From IMG/VR virus record IMGVR_UViG_2740892006_000002: a stretch of 5,354 bases of DNA; one strand, 5' to 3'. Of this stretch, positions 1-5,354 are shown in pieces. This DNA is from a virus (Duplodnaviria > Heunggongvirae > Uroviricota > Caudoviricetes). Under the pieces are notes generated by a model, which ran no database searches, had not been told where the DNA came from, and saw only the letters and a program-made list of their open reading frames with translations. Each line of letters begins with the position of its first letter. The first letter of the stretch is position 1. The translations under genes and the position numbers were made by a program.

Positions 1-807
1 ATGGGTTCATGTGCAGCTCCATCAGCAAAAAGGGATGATAAGTTTATCACCACCGACTATTTGCAACAGTGCCCGTTTGCCTTAGGGAAAACAGGAAGCA
101 CCGTTGCGAATGATAAAGCAGTTGGATGGAACTGGAGTAGCGGAGCCTATAACGCAACTATTAGTGGTGCATCAACGTTAATTATTCATTTTTATATGGG
201 AGAAGGAAGTTGTCCTGCAGCTCAGTTTCGGATTAATTATAAAAATGGCGGTATTTTTTATCGTTCAGCCCGTGATGGTTATGGTTTTGAAGCCGACTGG
301 TCCGAATTTTACACCACCACCAGAAAACCTTCAGCAGGAGATGTTGGTGCACTGCCGTTATCTGGTGGTCAACTGAATGGTGCACTGGGTATCGGAACAT
401 CCAGTGCTCTTGGCGGTAATTCGATTGTATTGGGTGATAATGACACGGGCTTTAAACAAAATGGCGATGGTAATCTGGATGTTTATGCTAATAACGTCCA
501 TGTTATGCGCTTTGTCTCCGGAAGCATTCAAAGTAATAAAACCATAAATATTACAGGGCGTGTTAACCCCTCGGATTACGGTAACTTTGATTCCCGTTAT
601 GTGAAAGATGTTCGACTTGGTTCACAGCAATATTATGGAGTGAACAACTGGCGAACATGGAATTTCCAGTGCCCTTCAGGTCATGTATTGTCTGGTATTA
701 ATGTTCAGGATACAGGGTCTAACTCTGCCGATAATATAGCGGGTGTTTATTACAGACCCGTTCAAAAGTATATAAATGGCACCTGGTATAATGTAGCGAG
801 CGTTTAA
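1..807 (+). CDS. Phage tail fiber protein, C-terminal variable portion (5'-partial; ORF open to the window edge)
   Basis: Frame is open from position 1 to TAA at 805-807. Gly/Asn/Ser-rich composition typical of fiber tips. Shares the motif ALGGNSI(V/T)LGDNDTG(F/I)KQxGDG and the C-terminal tip motif QKYI(N/S)G(T/N)WYNV with the minus-strand fiber ORF. Its stop overlaps the start of the downstream tfa (TAAtATG), as in stf-tfa operons. Confidence 0.85.
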
Positions 808-808
808 T

Positions 809-1342
809 ATGATGCACTTAAAGAACATAAAAGCGGGTAATGCTAAAACACTGGAACAGTATGAGTTAACAAAGAAACACGGAGTTATCTGGCTTTACTC
901 TGAGGACGGAAAAAACTGGTATGAGGAAGTGAAAAACTTTCAGCCAGACACCATAAAGATTGTTTACGATGAAAATAATATTATTGTTGCCATAACCAAA
1001 GATGCCTCCACACTTAACCCTGAAGGTTATAGCGTCGTTGAGATTCCTGATATTACCGCCAACCGGCGTGCTGACGACTCAGGTAAATGGATGTTTAAAG
1101 ATGGCGCAGTCATTAAACGTGTATATACCGAAGAAGAGTTGCGCCTACAGACGGAAAACCAGAAAAAAATATTATTACAGCAGGCCAGAGAAAAAACGCA
1201 GTTCTGGCAAACACAGCTTACTTTGGGGATTATCACTGATTCAGACAGACAGCAACTGATGAACTGGATGCGATACGTGCAACAGGTTGAGACAACTGAT
1301 ACCTCGGTTCTTCCTGTAACATTCCCGGAACCACCAGAATAA
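809..1342 (+). CDS. tfa: Tail fiber assembly protein (Tfa family chaperone)
   Basis: 177 aa starting [11 protein letters not shown]...[23 protein letters not shown]...ITANRRAD, which is the conserved N-terminal half of enterobacterial Tfa proteins. Start codon lies 1 nt after the fiber stop. The N-terminal ~95 residues are highly similar to the minus-strand paralog at 1373-1900, and the C-terminus diverges. Confidence 0.9.
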
Positions 1343-1343
1343 G

Positions 1344-1368
1344 AAAAGGCCCGTACGGGCCTTAATTT
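1344..1368. terminator. Candidate bidirectional hairpin between the convergent tfa genes
   Basis: AAGGCCC-GTAC-GGGCCTT (7-bp GC-rich stem 1346-1352 / 1357-1363, 4-nt loop) lies between the tfa stop (1340-1342) and the tfa' stop (1373-1375). Flanking T/A runs are short, so efficiency is uncertain. Confidence 0.45.
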
Positions 1369-1372
1369 GTTG

Positions 1373-1900
1373 TTATTCTGGTTTCTGTGGCCATTCAGGC
1401 TTTGCAGTATCCACATGGCTGACCATAACGCTGTAGCGTTCCCATGATTCCAGTCGTGTGCGTTCCTCATCAGTTGCCATATTCAGTCTGACAGCACGTT
1501 CCAGCGGTTGAATCACAGACTCCGCTTCGGAAAGCAAAGCGGCTTTTTGTAACTCTGCCTGCTGTTGCAGTTCCTGTTTTGTATATTCCCGCTTTACTAC
1601 TTTACCATCCAGAAACTTCCAGTTTCCCGAGATATCGGCGCGACGGTTGGCTGTTATATTCGGTAACTCAACAACACTTAACCCGTCAGGGTTAAGTGTT
1701 GATACGTCTTTCTCAATACAACGAATAATCCCCTTCTGGTCATAAGCTATTTTTAAAGTATCATCCTGAAAGTTTTTTAATTCGTCATACCAGTTTTTAC
1801 CGTCTTCTGTATATAGCCAGATAACGCCAGCTTTTTTCGTAAGCTGATACTGCTCAATGGTTTTGGGGTTTCCGGCGGTAATATTTTTCAGATGTTGCAT
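1373..1900 (-). CDS. tfa: Tail fiber assembly protein, alternative cassette (Tfa')
   Basis: 175 aa starting [36 protein letters not shown]...ITANRRAD. An AGGAGA Shine-Dalgarno sits about 7 nt upstream of the ATG (reverse complement of 1904-1909). The C-terminal tail ...[15 protein letters not shown]...PEWP resembles the lambda-Tfa-type C-terminus seen again at 4116-4385. Confidence 0.9.
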
Positions 1901-1915
1901 ATATTCTCCTGATGG

Positions 1916-2884
1916 CTATGCCTGTTCAACGTTATACCAGTTACCAGAAATGTATTTTTGTAGTGGTCGTGACACCATCCAGTCATCTCCATCAACCTCA
2001 CCAATAATTTGCAATCCTGTTGTCACATGACCATTACCTGGTTCGCAAAGTCCTCCGCGATATAATGTGTCAGAACGTCTGCCTCCCAGACGCACATTTC
2101 TGATAAAAGAACTATTCAGGTAATCATTTAAGTTTGACCCCCAGCACCCACCAAATATATTTCCATCGGTGTTATAACGGACGCCACCCGCAATAAGAGC
2201 ACCCGGTGAAATAAAGGATTTATCGTTCGGGTTAAACTGCCATAAAGCATCATTACCGCCATCGCCACGCATATGAATACATGGAACCGGAAATCCATAC
2301 TGTTCTGTCAGTAAATACCCAAAGCTGACCGCGCCGGGATAGCCCTGTCCATTGCGAATGGACAAGCCCTTAACTATCGGCACGTAAAGACCACCAGGAG
2401 TGGGATTCCAGGCAAACTGCGTCTGAACAAAAGGCGCGGTGGCATTATTCAACTGGTCTGCAAATGCGCCACTTCCATCAGGAATTATTCCCTGATGAAT
2501 ATATGCAACCCGCTTATAAAAATCAGCAGATGCGGGTTGAAGCCCAAATGCCAGTTGTCCATTTGAATAGAATAAAAGGACACCGTCGCCGCCCTGTTTA
2601 ATACCAGTGTCGTTATCTCCGAGAGTAATGGAATTACCGCCCAGTGCGTTATCTGTACCAAGCGCCAGCCCACCATCAATTTTGGCCCCGTGGCTGACAG
2701 ATATAGCACCTGTTCTCAGATTTATAGCGAATGGCCTTAATGGGCCGATATCACCGTTTTCGCCTTGTCCTTCAGCCGTCGGAATGAAATGAAGAAAATC
2801 TTCTGAACGACGGAAAATAAGACCGAAGGCATCATTGAAAATTCGCAGCGCATTCACCGTGCCAATTTTCAGTTCTCCGGTCAT
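1916..2884 (-). CDS. Alternative tail fiber variable segment (Sv'-like cassette); frame stays open upstream to about 2947 through the crossover site
   Basis: 322-aa ORF with the same glycine-rich motif (ALGGNSITLGDNDTGIKQGGDG) and C-terminal QKYISGNWYNV tip as the + strand fiber. It is followed 16 nt downstream by tfa' with its own SD. My translation upstream of the first ATG stays in frame (…NLGLQETVNKAGNAVQRSGDK-MTGELKIG) across 2930-2955, as expected for a promoterless cassette that becomes fused to a constant fiber part after inversion. Confidence 0.85.
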   Translation of the reverse strand: MTGELKIGTVNALRIFNDAFGLIFRRSEDFLHFIPTAEGQGENGDIGPLRPFAINLRTGAISVSHGAKIDGGLALGTDNALGGNSITLGDNDTGIKQGGDGVLLFYSNGQLAFGLQPASADFYKRVAYIHQGIIPDGSGAFADQLNNATAPFVQTQFAWNPTPGGLYVPIVKGLSIRNGQGYPGAVSFGYLLTEQYGFPVPCIHMRGDGGNDALWQFNPNDKSFISPGALIAGGVRYNTDGNIFGGCWGSNLNDYLNSSFIRNVRLGGRRSDTLYRGGLCEPGNGHVTTGLQIIGEVDGDDWMVSRPLQKYISGNWYNVEQA

Positions 2885-2929
2885 TTTATCGCCGGAACGC
2901 TGAACGGCGTTACCAGCCTTGTTTACCGT

Positions 2930-2955
2930 TTCCTGTAAACCGAGGTTTTAGATAA
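2930..2955. other. Gin/Pin/Cin/Hin-type inversion crossover site (pix/gix-like), right end of the invertible segment
   Basis: TTCCTGTAAACC-GA-GGTTTTAGATAA: 26 bp made of two imperfect 12-bp inverted half-sites around a central GA, closely matching the recalled gix/cix/pix consensus. It lies between the 5' end of the silent fiber cassette and the invertase start (3010), which is the canonical position. Confidence 0.7.
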
Positions 2956-3009
2956 TGGCGGTTTCTGGCCTGCATGGCATGATTTGTGCTTTTGGACGGG
3001 AGATTCAGC

Positions 3010-3252
3010 GTGCTGATTGGCTATGTAAGGGTATCAACAAATGACCAGAATACAGATCTGCAACGAAACGCTCTTGTTTGTGCAGGATATGAACAAATAT
3101 TTGAAGATAAATTAAGCGGAACAAGGACAGGCCGACCTGGATTAAAACGTGCTTTAAAGCGCCTTCAAAAAGGTGACGCACTGGTTGTCTGAAAACTGGA
3201 CTGACTGGTTCACTGTATGCGGCATCTTGTCGTGCTGGTGGTGGAAGCCTAG
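3010..3252 (+). pseudogene. pin: Serine DNA invertase (Pin/Gin/Hin family), truncated and decayed
   Basis: GTG start at 3010 with GGGAGA SD 6 nt upstream. The first 60 codons (VLIGYVRVSTNDQNTDLQRNALVCAGYEQIFEDKLSGTRTGRPGLKRALKRLQKGDALVV) match the invertase N-terminus, including the catalytic Ser in YVRVSTNDQ. TGA at 3190-3192 replaces the expected Trp of VVWKLDRLGRS, followed by in-frame stops at 3202-3204 and 3250-3252 and several substitutions (*KLD*LVHCMRHLVVLVVEA*). The whole C-terminal catalytic/HTH portion is missing; the frame runs into a tfa 3' end. Confidence 0.85.
3025..3100. promoter_or_regulatory. Candidate Fis-dependent recombinational enhancer retained inside the invertase 5' remnant
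   Basis: In Hin/Gin/Cin systems the enhancer lies within the first ~100 bp of the invertase coding sequence with two Fis sites roughly 48 bp apart. Two G-N13-C 15-mers with AT-rich centres occur here at 3031-3045 (GTATCAACAAATGAC) and 3080-3094 (GTGCAGGATATGAAC), centres 49 bp apart. Assigned by eye only. Confidence 0.3.
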
Positions 3253-3385
3253 AAAAAGTATCGGGTGTTACTGAACCGTGTTGATACATCAACTGCACCT
3301 GATATTGAGTGGCCTACGAACCCTGTCAGGGAGTAATCATTGGGATTATGCCGCAGCACGTCTTAAGCAAGAACGTGCTGCGGTT
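3244..3385 (+). repeat. Direct repeat copy A (tfa 3' end plus hairpin), fused in frame to the invertase remnant
   Basis: About 140 bp, roughly 90% identical to 4293-4436 at a constant 1049-bp offset. Encodes [29 protein letters not shown] (stop 3334-3336), then a perfect 11-bp-stem hairpin CCGCAGCACGT-(11 nt)-ACGTGCTGCGG at 3351-3383. Confidence 0.8.
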
Positions 3386-3399
3386 GGATGCTATTTTTT
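3351..3399 (+). terminator. Hairpin plus T-run downstream of the tfa-like 3' end (candidate intrinsic terminator)
   Basis: Perfect 11-bp stem at 3351-3361 / 3373-3383, then TTTTTT at 3394-3399. The T-run is about 10 nt from the stem and also encodes the last Lys codons of the minus-strand methyltransferase, so terminator function is uncertain. Confidence 0.3.
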
Positions 3400-4059
3400 C
3401 CCTGAAGCGGAAAACATTACTACAGTACCTTGAACCTTGGTTTTAACATTCTCGAAATGCTCTGAGAGTATATGTGTTAAGCCTTCTTCGGAATCTTTTG
3501 TGTTTGAAAAGATGCCTTTCTGATTGTAAATGCGCATCAGTTTTTGACCGAAGCTATTGTGCACAACGCCGTCACCAAGAATTGTGGCTCCGTATAGAGT
3601 TCCATCGTCAGTTAAGGCCTGCGCCGCATTGCGTATTACACAGCTTTTTGTAGATATATTTCCAGGCAGGCAGTGAAGAAGGTAAAACATGGAAATGGAA
3701 TCAAATTGACCATGTAACGCCGCGGGATAAGGTTCAAAAACATCATGGCTAATTTTATGTTTAATTTTTGATTCCCCAGCCCTTGTAGATGCCGCGTTCA
3801 GGCTAGCTTCGTTCAAATCCATTAAAGATATCAGACTACTCTCAGGTACGTGAGTAAGGTAAAACCCAGTTCCAACACCAATATCCAGATGGTTGTTACC
3901 TACATGTTCCAGAAAGTGTGGAAGAAGGTGTTCCTTTGTAGGACATCCCCATGCAAGCCGATTTGATACTCCCAAAACCCACCAGTCATAAAGCTTTAGG
4001 GTAAGTGGTGTGTAAATTTTAGCCCCATCATCTGTGTTTTTTTTCATTGATTTCACCAT
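3391..4059 (-). CDS. Class I SAM-dependent methyltransferase (prophage moron)
   Basis: 222-aa ORF with a Rossmann-fold motif I, HLDIGVGTGFY, followed by an acidic residue after the next strand (LISLMDLNE) and a later FDSISMFYLLHCLP segment. No DPPY/NPPY-type amino-MTase motif. An alternative start at the second ATG (4047-4045; MKKNTDD...) is preceded by a GGTGA SD-like sequence. Confidence 0.85.
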   Translation of the reverse strand: MVKSMKKNTDDGAKIYTPLTLKLYDWWVLGVSNRLAWGCPTKEHLLPHFLEHVGNNHLDIGVGTGFYLTHVPESSLISLMDLNEASLNAASTRAGESKIKHKISHDVFEPYPAALHGQFDSISMFYLLHCLPGNISTKSCVIRNAAQALTDDGTLYGATILGDGVVHNSFGQKLMRIYNQKGIFSNTKDSEEGLTHILSEHFENVKTKVQGTVVMFSASGKK

Positions 4060-4088
4060 GTTATAGTTTTATTTGTGAATTAAATCAA
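4060..4088 (-). promoter_or_regulatory. Candidate sigma70 promoter for the methyltransferase
   Basis: On the minus strand: TTGATT (4088-4083), a 17-nt spacer, then TATAAC (4065-4060). The -10 abuts the first ATG (4059-4057), which would imply transcription starting at or after that codon and translation from the second ATG. Judged by eye, weak. Confidence 0.25.
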
Positions 4089-4115
4089 TTATGGCGATGA
4101 ATTACAAGGGGTTAA

Positions 4116-4385
4116 ATGCTGCCGCAGCATAGCGATATTGAAATAGCCTGGTATGCTTCGATACAGCAGGAGCCGAATGGCTGGAAGACCGTCACCACAC
4201 AGTTCTACATCCAGGAATTCAGTGAGTATATTGCGCCACTGCAGGATGCTGTAGATCTGGAAATCGCAACGGAGGAAGAAAGATCGTTGCTGGAGGCATG
4301 GAATAAATATCGGGTATTGTTGAATCGTGTTGATACATCAACTGCACCTGATATTGAGTGGCCTGCAAATCCTGTCAGGGAGTAA
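4116..4385 (+). pseudogene. tfa: Tail fiber assembly protein, C-terminal fragment (lambda Tfa-like), N-terminal half missing
   Basis: The 89-aa ORF ends ...[54 protein letters not shown], closely resembling the C-terminus of lambda Tfa as I recall it. There is no conserved Tfa N-terminal region; an AAGGGG SD sits about 5 nt upstream of the ATG at 4116. The 3' part is repeat copy B. Confidence 0.7.
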
Positions 4386-4436
4386 TCATTGGGATTATGC
4401 CGCAGACACGTCGTATGCAGGAACGTGCTGCGGTTA
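4293..4436 (+). repeat. Direct repeat copy B (tfa 3' end plus hairpin)
   Basis: Matches 3244-3385 at a +1049 offset (+1050 after a 1-nt insertion in the hairpin arm). The W codon TGG at 4299-4301 corresponds to TAG at 3250-3252 in copy A. The hairpin here is imperfect (CCGCAGACACGT...ACGTGCTGCGG). Confidence 0.8.
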
Positions 4437-4499
4437 GTTTGTGAGCTTTCGATAGTGGTTGTTATTTTTGCCCTTATTTGTTCCGGAGGCCATGGTTCA

Positions 4500-4670
4500 A
4501 TGGTCCGTCTGCCCCCTGTGGTGATGTCAGCAAAATCAGCCACTGCGCGAACCACAATAGCCCGGGAAGATGCTGAAGATCACCAGGTAAAGCTGTCAGC
4601 GCAGAAACTGGAAGAACTGCTCGCATCAATGGTTAAGGATGAGGTTGATCGCAATGATGGGATTTATTGA
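4500..4670 (+). CDS. Hypothetical small protein (56 aa); uncertain
   Basis: In-frame ATG at 4500 with GGAGG (4485-4489) about 10 nt upstream, giving MVRLPPVVMSAKSATARTTIAREDAEDHQVKLSAQKLEELLASMVKDEVDRNDGIY. The ORF-track start at 4389 lies inside repeat B and is unlikely. No family recognised. Confidence 0.25.
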   Translation: MVRLPPVVMSAKSATARTTIAREDAEDHQVKLSAQKLEELLASMVKDEVDRNDGIY

Positions 4671-4765
4671 CGTCAGCGAGAGCAGAAGGAAGAACTGAAT
4701 AACCTGAATGATTTACGCTCAATCAGAGCGATGGCGATTAGCGGCAATCACGCTCGATAAAATTA

Positions 4766-4790
4766 ACCCCGGTGATCATCCGGGGTTTTG
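4766..4790. terminator. Bidirectional intrinsic terminator between the small + ORF and the convergent Rha-family gene
   Basis: ACCCCGG-TGATCAT-CCGGGGT stem-loop (4766-4786) followed by TTTT on the + strand, and by a T-rich stretch (TTAATTTTAT) on the minus strand. It lies just downstream of the minus-strand stop at 4797-4799. Confidence 0.6.
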
Positions 4791-4796
4791 CATTCA

Positions 4797-5354
4797 TTAA
4801 AACCGCATCAACCTTTCCACCAATTGTTCTTTACGGGCAACGATCCACCCATGTTGCTCCAGATAAAATTTAAACCGTTCCAGCGTGCATACCATCGCAT
4901 CGGCGGGGACTTTTTCTGTGAACTCGACCTGACCGTGTTTATCGAAGTGGATCAGTAATGCGCATCCATTATTTGGGGCGGGGGAGTTTTGTGCTGCAGG
5001 AGGACGTTTGTGGAGTTCTTCTTCCATTGCGTTAAATTTTTCAATGTAAGCTTCTTTTAGTCTGGCTGCTTTTTTGCCAGTAAATCCCATTACGAGGAAC
5101 ATGAAGCCGTCTTTTGTGATCAGGTAGCATCGTGATTCACGTTCTGCGCCGTTGCCAATTTCGACAGTCTGAACATCGGCCGAAAAGTTGGCTGATGTAA
5201 ATTCGGGAGAGCAGTCGAGTGTGTCAATCTTAGCTAAAACGTGTTTATGTTGTTTATCGAAGTAGTCGGCAACAGCTTGAGAGGTGGTAACCAGGCGACC
5301 ATCTTTGAAAAAGACTTTTGGTGACTCGTTAGAAAAAGTTATAGCTGTATTCAT
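4797..5354 (-). CDS. Rha-family phage regulatory protein (antirepressor-like N-terminal domain) with an uncharacterised C-terminal domain
   Basis: 185 aa; the N-terminal region (...VTTSQAVADYFDKQHKHVLAKIDTLDCSPEF...YLITKDGFMFLVMGFTGKKAARLKEAYIEKFNAMEE) matches the pRha-domain pattern as I recall it. The start codon is at the window edge (5352-5354), so upstream signals cannot be seen. Confidence 0.7.
   Translation of the reverse strand: MNTAITFSNESPKVFFKDGRLVTTSQAVADYFDKQHKHVLAKIDTLDCSPEFTSANFSADVQTVEIGNGAERESRCYLITKDGFMFLVMGFTGKKAARLKEAYIEKFNAMEEELHKRPPAAQNSPAPNNGCALLIHFDKHGQVEFTEKVPADAMVCTLERFKFYLEQHGWIVARKEQLVERLMRF

Follow-up and report, generated by a model that had tools for sequence, protein, structure and literature searches.

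Probable right-hand part of an orphaned Mu G-type invertible tail-fibre segment, probably flipped in trans

Two tail-fibre cassettes that face each other next to a 26-bp dyad raise the question whether the DNA that holds them can be inverted to exchange the tip of a phage tail fibre, and, if so, by which enzyme. The stretch analysed (5,354 nucleotides, hereafter the window) is very likely the right-hand ~3 kb of a Mu G-type invertible tail-fibre segment that is orphaned and probably flipped in trans. A Mu G-type invertible host-range segment had also been proposed in a first-pass annotation, which was correct in kind; the comparative data from ST131 relatives agree with it. The segment is carried by a lambdoid prophage at ompW/trp in an Escherichia coli ST131-like genome. 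The type of switch is already well known and is decayed in the source genome; nothing in it is categorically new.

Fibre cassettes, crossover sites and the IS26 junction

From the open reading frames (ORFs), the Pfam matches and the alignments, the window contains two alternative variable fibre ends in opposite orientation, each with a chaperone of its own (Table 1). The ORFs are located at 1-807 and 809-1342 on the plus strand and at 1373-1900 and 1916-2884 on the minus strand, and a palindromic hairpin lies between the two convergent fibre-tip/chaperone cassettes, as in the first-pass annotation. The tip on the plus strand, var1, is 99.6% identical to the stretch from residue 699 to the end (941) of the 941-aa Stf in strain JJ1886. 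It is also 98% identical to the C-terminus of H of the P2-like prophage of ST131, and its residues 1-92 are 85% identical to Mu S'. Its partner Tfa1 shares 69% identity with Mu U' and 66% with Mu U, and Tfa2 shares 77% with Mu U. A Pfam search of var2 gave no match; this tip is 100% identical to residues 627-968 of a fused 968-aa Stf of strain 4/1-1.

Table 1. Position of the features in the window
Feature	Coordinates	Strand	Evidence
IS26 terminal 73 bp, with 14-bp terminal inverted repeat at 60-73; not fibre	1..73	.	Identity to annotated IS26 ends
var1, variable fibre tip, C-terminal 243 residues	74..807	+	Pfam gp37_C; protein alignment
tfa1, tail fibre assembly chaperone, partner of var1	809..1342	+	Pfam Caudo_TAP, E 6e-32
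Palindromic hairpin, 18-nt AAGGCCCGTACGGGCCTT, between the convergent cassettes	1346..1363	.	Terminator-like score, both strands
tfa2, tail fibre assembly chaperone, partner of var2	1373..1900	-	Pfam Caudo_TAP, E 1e-33
var2, silent variable fibre tip, 343 codons, frame open through the crossover site	1916..2947	-	Translation
Right crossover site, gix-type, TTCCTGTAAACCGAGGTTTTAGATAA, central dinucleotide GA at 2942-2943	2930..2955	+	25/26 to Mu gixL/gixR
Gin-type serine invertase pseudogene	3010..3192	+	60 codons 95% identical to Mu Gin, then TGA
Candidate Fis-dependent recombinational enhancer in the dead invertase gene	3031..3094	.	Inferred; conserved positions compared with Mu gin

Upstream of the ATG at 2884 the minus frame reads stop-NLGLQETVNKAGNAVQRSGDK-M. 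As had been claimed, this frame crosses the site without a stop; the first one is the TAA at 2948-2950, in the outer half-site and past the crossover dinucleotide. The silent tip can thus be fused in frame, and the fused 968-aa ORF is real in 4/1-1. The site itself spans 26 bp and is an imperfect dyad centred on a 2-bp core. With up to 3 mismatches permitted, it was found once in the window and had 0 matches in 200 shuffles, and none is expected by chance. It had been described as Gin/Pin-type. The likeness to Gin stood, the site being of the gix type, but a search of the e14 P region for a site of this kind found none within 7 mismatches.

A second (left) site was searched for in the window at up to 3 and subsequently at up to 7 mismatches, and none was found. 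The sequence 'ACAGGAAGCACCGTT' near positions 85-100 was considered as a degenerate left site and dropped, as the true site of the relatives is situated 225 bp upstream of window base 74. There, in the ST131 relatives, the left site TTATCGAATACCTCGGTTTACGAGAA (5776-5801 in L001) lies inside the 941-aa stf and is an inverted, diverged copy of the right site, to which it is identical at 22/26 positions, with a compatible TC/GA core. The constant part of stf sits upstream of it. The left site and constant part that had been expected upstream are therefore present in these 99.9%-identical relatives, but the source contig ends in IS26.

In the genome comparison, the prophage at the ompW/trp locus of ST131 was 99.9% identical to window positions 74-5354, and every prophage match in the genomes starts at base 74. 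Bases 1-73 are 100% identical to the ends of elements annotated as 'IS6-like element IS26 family transposase' in >5000 plasmids; their assignment to IS1 was dropped, as the sequence search gave IS26. This part of the window, in which one end of the IS6-family element is visible, finishes in the terminal repeat TTTGCAACAGTGCC. The 14-bp inverted repeat GGCACTGTTGCAAA can be read directly at 60-73, and the start codon of the adjacent transposase is found at 8-10 on the minus strand. Since IS26 accounts for bases 1-73, the plus-strand 'fibre' ORF begins with 24 codons that are not fibre, and to judge from its sequence ORF 1-807 is an IS26-fibre chimera. Of the range 1-2955 that had been taken as the fibre switch, the part from base 74 onwards holds, but bases 1-73 do not belong to it. 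IS26, directly upstream of base 74, separates the plus cassette from its first ~72 codons. A complete E. coli genome with the IS26/fibre junction was not found; none of the matches listed reaches beyond base 74 on the upstream side.

The source contig starts inside IS26, 4 bp upstream of the window, and the left site of the source genome is therefore out of sight. A simple IS26 insertion would read '...CATGTTGGTGCGTTTGCC' followed by IS26 and 'CGTTTGCCTTAGGG', with an expected 8-bp target duplication that we take to be CGTTTGCC. The left site and the constant part could also have been deleted by IS26. IS26 interrupts var1 at a point 200 bp inside the segment; in the orientation seen, an intact fibre cannot be made. 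A whole Stf-var2 fibre would be produced in the flipped state only, provided that the left site is still present on the far side of IS26.

Orientation of the segment in ST131 relatives

With 600-bp locus-specific junction queries, the segment was oriented as in the window in 144 cases and flipped in 239 among complete genomes, counts that alone measure no rate and could partly reflect clonal inheritance instead of frequent flipping. These queries replaced 180-bp junction queries, which gave too high a number for the flipped state, as they also match the P2-like prophage. In strain 4/1-1 the segment is inverted, which gives the 968-aa Stf-var2 fusion, and in the relatives the fused ORFs of 941 aa and of 968 aa are each intact. 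The inverted DNA between the sites forms a single collinear block of 3119 bp with 99.8% identity. Comparison of JJ1886 with 4/1-1 revealed hybrid sites: at the right site the half-sites are swapped, the outer arms staying in place and the inner arms moving, and the exchange point falls within ACCTCGGTTTAC, which is common to both sites. The inverted copy of the site and the two orientations that the first-pass annotation had proposed to look for were both found in relatives, and the exchange took place exactly at the predicted site. In a comparison made among relatives, both orientations thus occur in nature with the exchange at the core of the site.

The following mechanism would account for the two orientations. 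In intact relatives the constant N-terminal part of Stf comprises 626 residues and ends at the 26-bp site. A serine DNA invertase would swap strands at the central dinucleotides of the left site and the inverted right site, by which 3081 bp would be flipped. The constant part would then be joined either to var1 (with tfa1) or to var2 (with tfa2), and the receptor-binding tip would change accordingly.

It could be argued that no inversion takes place anywhere now, and that the two orientations stem from one or a few old flips that predate the loss of gin and have been passed on clonally. All relatives examined have the local invertase as a pseudogene only, and the counts given above yield no rate by themselves. 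However, Esc9 and Esc21, with chromosomes of 5,156,506 and 5,156,486 bp that are 20 bp apart, have opposite orientations, and the fused ORFs of both states are still intact. Moreover, a preprint (10.1101/2022.05.07.487787) describes reversible inversion, with both states confirmed by PCR in one isolate, in an ST131 prophage without invertase. That prophage is named 'Entero_BP_4795'; the text of the preprint gives no locus, so it cannot be tied to ompW. Taken as a whole, a frozen segment is improbable.

Even less probable is that RecA-dependent recombination between homologous, inverted stretches, and not site-specific exchange, sets the orientation. The genes tfa1 and tfa2 are indeed homologous and inverted, var1 and the tip of the P2-like fibre are nearly identical (98%), and translocation of cassettes between prophages is mentioned in the same preprint (10.1101/2022.05.07.487787). 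When L001 and L002 are compared, however, the breakpoints lie in an identical core of 12 bp that is flanked by site-specific polymorphisms and coincides with the gix crossover position. A core of this length lies far below what efficient RecA recombination requires, and all the DNA between the sites was inverted as the one collinear block.

A dead invertase and possible supply in trans

The 60 codons left of the invertase gene include the catalytic-serine motif YVRVST. They are followed by the TGA at 3190-3192 and by more stops at 3202-3204 and 3250-3252; the homology to gin ends near ~3245, after which a 3' fragment of tfa is found. Pfam recognized the Resolvase N-terminal domain only, and in RefSeq the remnant is annotated as 'recombinase family protein, incomplete'. 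In all relatives examined it is a pseudogene, so that in the place of an adjacent functional serine invertase gene there are 60 codons, stops and a deletion, with ~400 bp of the gene missing. That this gene encodes the flipping enzyme of a self-contained active switch is hardly conceivable: its distance to the crossover centre (67 bp) does match that in Mu, and its 60 codons, with the YVRVST motif among them, resemble Gin, but the stops and the loss of homology leave it with neither dimerisation helix nor DNA-binding domain (positions 2-69 of the 145 in the Pfam Resolvase model are covered). The self-sufficiency implied by the first-pass annotation is refuted by the pseudogene at 3010-3192; as far as can be read from the DNA, the switch is not self-sufficient.

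As its own invertase is a pseudogene, inversion of the segment probably relies on the intact Gin-like invertase of a co-resident P2-like prophage, and catalysis would most likely take place in trans. Intact 199-aa invertases that are 85% identical to Mu Gin are encoded by the P2-like prophages of JJ2434 and 4/1-1 (P2-like prophage invertase WP_000905061.1), and in strain 4/0 a pair of invertases with 73% and 76% identity to Mu Gin is intact. The invertible H/tfa segment of the P2-like prophage, near serS in JJ2434 and 4/1-1, is resident in the same genomes. The sequence of its left site is that of the lambdoid left site, 3/26 positions distinguish its right site from that of the window, and its fibre tip is the near-identical relative of var1 described above. 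Unlike the segment of the window, it possesses an intact invertase and a P2-type constant part. It is likely the enzyme donor, as a separate element. Cross-complementation of Gin, Cin, Pin and Hin is established according to the part of PMC3798978 that cites Kahmann et al. (1985). We consider it fairly likely that an orphan gix-bounded fibre segment of a lambdoid prophage, which has retained only its sites and an enhancer-bearing gin stub, is kept switchable by the invertase of the co-resident P2-like prophage.

The stub could have a function of its own. The location of the enhancer within the invertase gene is established (Kahmann et al. 1985, in the part of PMC3798978 that cites it), and over its first ~190 bp the dead gene has about 6 mismatches to Mu gin. 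Two G-N13-C cores were found here, at 3031-3045 and 3080-3094; set against the corresponding positions in Mu, the first shows no difference and the second a change of 1 base. The first core is centred 95.5 bp from the crossover, in agreement with the spacing of ~100 bp of the Hin enhancer (PMC3798978). The published sequence of the Gin enhancer was sought in the literature and only this Hin spacing was citable; the assignment is therefore kept as a candidate. This candidate Fis enhancer is probably still provided in cis by the part of gin that is left at the 5' end.

Known systems and implications

The segment most resembles the G segment of Mu, with which it shares closely similar crossover sites and the gene order constant part, site, tip, chaperone, inverted chaperone, inverted tip, site and invertase at 67 bp. 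The lengths are comparable (3059 bp in Mu versus 3081 bp here), the Tfa proteins are 65-77% identical to U and U', and var1 has its counterpart in S' (85% over 92 residues), whereas var2 is without a close one. The invertase remnant is 95% identical to Gin but is a pseudogene here. The constant part has 170 residues in Mu against 626 here, in the stf gene of a lambdoid prophage; the left and right sites are identical in Mu and differ at 4/26 positions here; and in the source genome var1 is split by IS26, in contrast to Mu. The P segment of e14 in E. coli K-12, with Pin (stfP-tfaP / tfaE-stfE, pinE), has the same layout and belongs to a defective chromosomal prophage. PinE is of the same invertase family (75% identical to the remnant over 60 residues), but e14 keeps an intact pinE whereas the local invertase is dead here, and its chaperones are distantly related to those of the window (31% over 62 residues).

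The prophage seems to have undergone partial decay (in JJ1886 an ISEc12 copy interrupts lom), and the switch may therefore be without phenotypic consequence. What the locus provides is a cleanly mapped Mu G-type host-range switch inside the stf gene of a lambdoid prophage in ST131, a pandemic lineage. The label 'hypothetical protein' of the silent cassette and the gene call for the IS26-fibre chimera are artefacts of this architecture, and differences in orientation between otherwise identical assemblies are expected biology at this locus, not misassembly. A locus that flips while its own invertase is dead would illustrate how recombination machinery and fibre cassettes can be shared among the prophages of one cell. 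If this is true, two prophages share one enzyme and nearly identical tip cassettes, so that within ST131 the cassette repertoire and the host-range state of one would be linked to those of the other.

Facing fibre cassettes and their crossover sites

According to the ORF listing the minus-strand cassette of the window, the silent pair var2/tfa2, faces the plus-strand pair var1/tfa1, and the ORFs, the Pfam assignments and the palindrome bear out the proposal of the first-pass annotation that two convergent fibre/chaperone cassettes lie across a hairpin. The frame of var2 runs on upstream of its ATG (...*NLGLQETVNKAGNAVQRSGDK-MTGELKIG in the minus-strand translation) and meets its first stop at 2948-2950, in the outer half of the 26-bp crossover site and past the central GA (2942-2943). 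The site itself (TTCCTGTAAACCGAGGTTTTAGATAA) is present in a single copy at 2930-2955, where it had been reported; with up to 3 mismatches allowed it had 0 matches in 200 shuffles. The observation of a site at this position, with a minus-strand fibre frame open to its far side, was therefore correct as made.

Features of the window and their coordinates
Feature	Coordinates	Strand	Basis
Fibre-tip ORF (IS26/var1 chimera)	1-807	+	ORF listing; Pfam gp37_C
Chaperone ORF (tfa1)	809-1342	+	ORF listing; Pfam Caudo_TAP
18-nt palindrome between chaperone genes	1346-1363	both	terminator score on each strand
Chaperone ORF (tfa2)	1373-1900	-	ORF listing; Pfam Caudo_TAP
322-codon ORF (var2)	1916-2884	-	ORF listing
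Class I SAM-dependent methyltransferase, bracketed by direct repeats	3391-4059	-	
Rha regulator gene	4797-5354	-	

A left site and the constant N-terminal part of the fibre had been expected further upstream. Both were found in JJ1886, with the left site (TTATCGAATACCTCGGTTTACGAGAA) at 5776-5801 of its locus (L001) and a plus-strand fibre of 941 aa ('prophage tail fiber N-terminal domain-containing protein'); the source contig of the window itself breaks inside IS26. The JJ1886 left site repeats the right site in inverted orientation, with 22/26 positions matching and a compatible TC/GA core, and the crossover centres are 3081 bp apart, versus 3059 bp in the Mu G segment.

The right site agrees with Mu gix at 25/26 positions. 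Among the proteins, the chaperones share 65-77% identity with Mu U and U', the invertase stub shares 95% with Mu Gin, and for part of var1 the identity to Mu S' is 85%. The e14 P segment is less alike: its chaperones are distant, and a search of the e14 P region gave no site similar to that of the window. Because of this difference 'Gin-type' is more accurate than the earlier label 'Gin/Pin-type'. The segment works like that of Mu G, its close relative. A known kind of system had been rightly recognised from the raw sequence as a Mu G-type invertible fibre switch, but its decay was missed, i.e. the dead invertase of the whole lineage and the IS26 that breaks the expressed cassette in the window's genome.

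The IS26 junction and the prophage locus

In a megablast search of 5,426 complete E. coli genomes only bases 74-5354 showed 99.9% identity to the ST131 lambdoid prophage adjoining ompW/trpA (e.g. JJ1886), and among the matches listed for a search with bases 1-400 no record reached upstream of base 74. Thousands of plasmids carry an IS26 end that matches bases 1-73 at 100% identity, and these bases close with the IS26 terminal repeat TTTGCAACAGTGCC. ORF 1-807 is thus a chimera of 24 IS26-derived codons and the last 243 codons of the fibre gene. An exact-protein look-up of this ORF returned one draft contig, LRHS01000036.1 (GCA_001647345.1), which starts 4 bp before the window, with the assembly break inside IS26. 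As the JJ1886 left site lies 225 bp upstream of the equivalent of base 74, IS26 is placed 200 bp inside the segment in the window's genome, where it cuts off the final 243 codons of var1 from the constant part and from the ~72 codons that open var1. In the source assembly this read-out chimera of IS26 and truncated fibre tip was called as a gene; the window extends from the ATG of the chimera to the start codon of the Rha regulator gene.

At the same ompW locus NCTC86 (L003 6385-9700) carries a different cassette pair. Its expressed and silent tips both resemble var1, window 74-620 and 74-1128 matching in opposite orientations, and its stf gene is annotated as split. In JJ1886 an ISEc12 (IS21-family) insertion interrupts the lom gene (L001 565-3757), which points to prophage decay in ST131.

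A dead invertase and its stub

The invertase gene starts with a GTG at 3010, 67 bp from the crossover centre as in Mu. Its remnant comprises 60 Gin-like residues, YVRVST included, after which it reads VV*KLD*LVHCMRHLVVLVVEA*. The homology to gin ends near 3245, a tfa 3' fragment comes next, and the Pfam match is limited to the first half of the Resolvase catalytic domain. RefSeq flags the gene as incomplete in all relatives examined. A functional adjacent invertase, one of the defining features of a self-contained Din system, is thus absent, and the switch is unable to drive itself.

Direct repeats at 3239-3385 and 4288-4435, 89% identical, each consist of a tail fibre assembly gene 3' end and a GC-rich hairpin. 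The methyltransferase between them, just past the dead invertase, resembles cargo picked up between two copies of a tfa end. Of the seven differences from JJ1886, three (3568, 3571 and 3574) cluster in a 7-bp stretch inside this gene.

Fis-dependent invertases require an enhancer in cis. Over the first ~190 bp, which the dead gin has kept, there are about 6 differences from Mu gin, and G-N13-C cores are found at the Mu gin positions (3031-3045 and 3080-3094), the former centred 95.5 bp from the crossover. The Hin enhancer lies inside hin, ~100 bp from hixL (PMC3798978), and the Gin enhancer is placed 'within the invertase gene' by Kahmann et al. (1985), as cited there. This suggests that the stub may still act as the enhancer in cis.

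Inversion and the probable source of its enzyme

In strain 4/1-1 the entire block between both sites is reversed with unchanged flanks. The constant part is thereby joined to var2 in a protein of 968 aa, and var2 of the window is 100% identical to residues 627-968 of this fusion. Comparison of the four sites revealed that the outer arms TTATCGAATACC and TTATCTAAAACC remain with the flanks and that the inner arms GGTTTACGAGAA and GGTTTACAGGAA move with the segment, which places the strand exchange within the common ACCTCGGTTTAC, the Gin crossover position. Locus-specific 600-bp junction queries counted 144 genomes in the orientation of the window and 239 in the flipped one, and the chromosomes of Esc9 (5,156,506 bp) and Esc21 (5,156,486 bp) carry the segment in opposite orientations. 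A preprint on ST131 wound isolates describes reversible inversions in two prophages, confirmed by PCR within one isolate; one of the two, 'Entero_BP_4795', is without an invertase of its own, and the text does not tie it to this locus (10.1101/2022.05.07.487787).

A P2-like prophage near serS is also present in ST131 genomes and has an invertible H/tfa segment of its own, a second complete fibre segment with an intact invertase (JJ2434, L005 2061-6752; 4/1-1, L006 20135-24826). In both strains the enzyme has 199 aa and is 85% identical to Mu Gin. The lambdoid left site recurs unchanged as the left site of the P2-like segment of JJ2434; the right site of that segment and that of the window disagree at 3 positions. 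The expressed P2-like tip is 98% identical to var1, which implies that unrelated prophages share cassettes. Strain 4/0 (L007 20014-23407) has a different prophage remnant at this serS site, in which two intact invertase genes (199 and 190 aa) flank short fibre and chaperone genes; identity to Mu Gin is 73% for one of the 4/0 enzymes and 76% for the other.

Because Gin, Cin, Pin and Hin complement one another, catalysis in trans is the most economical account of continued flipping: the intact invertase of the P2-like prophage would flip the lambdoid segment, which thus probably uses the enzyme of another prophage. The evidence for an orphaned segment that is still flipping in ST131 is the only mildly novel aspect of this switch.
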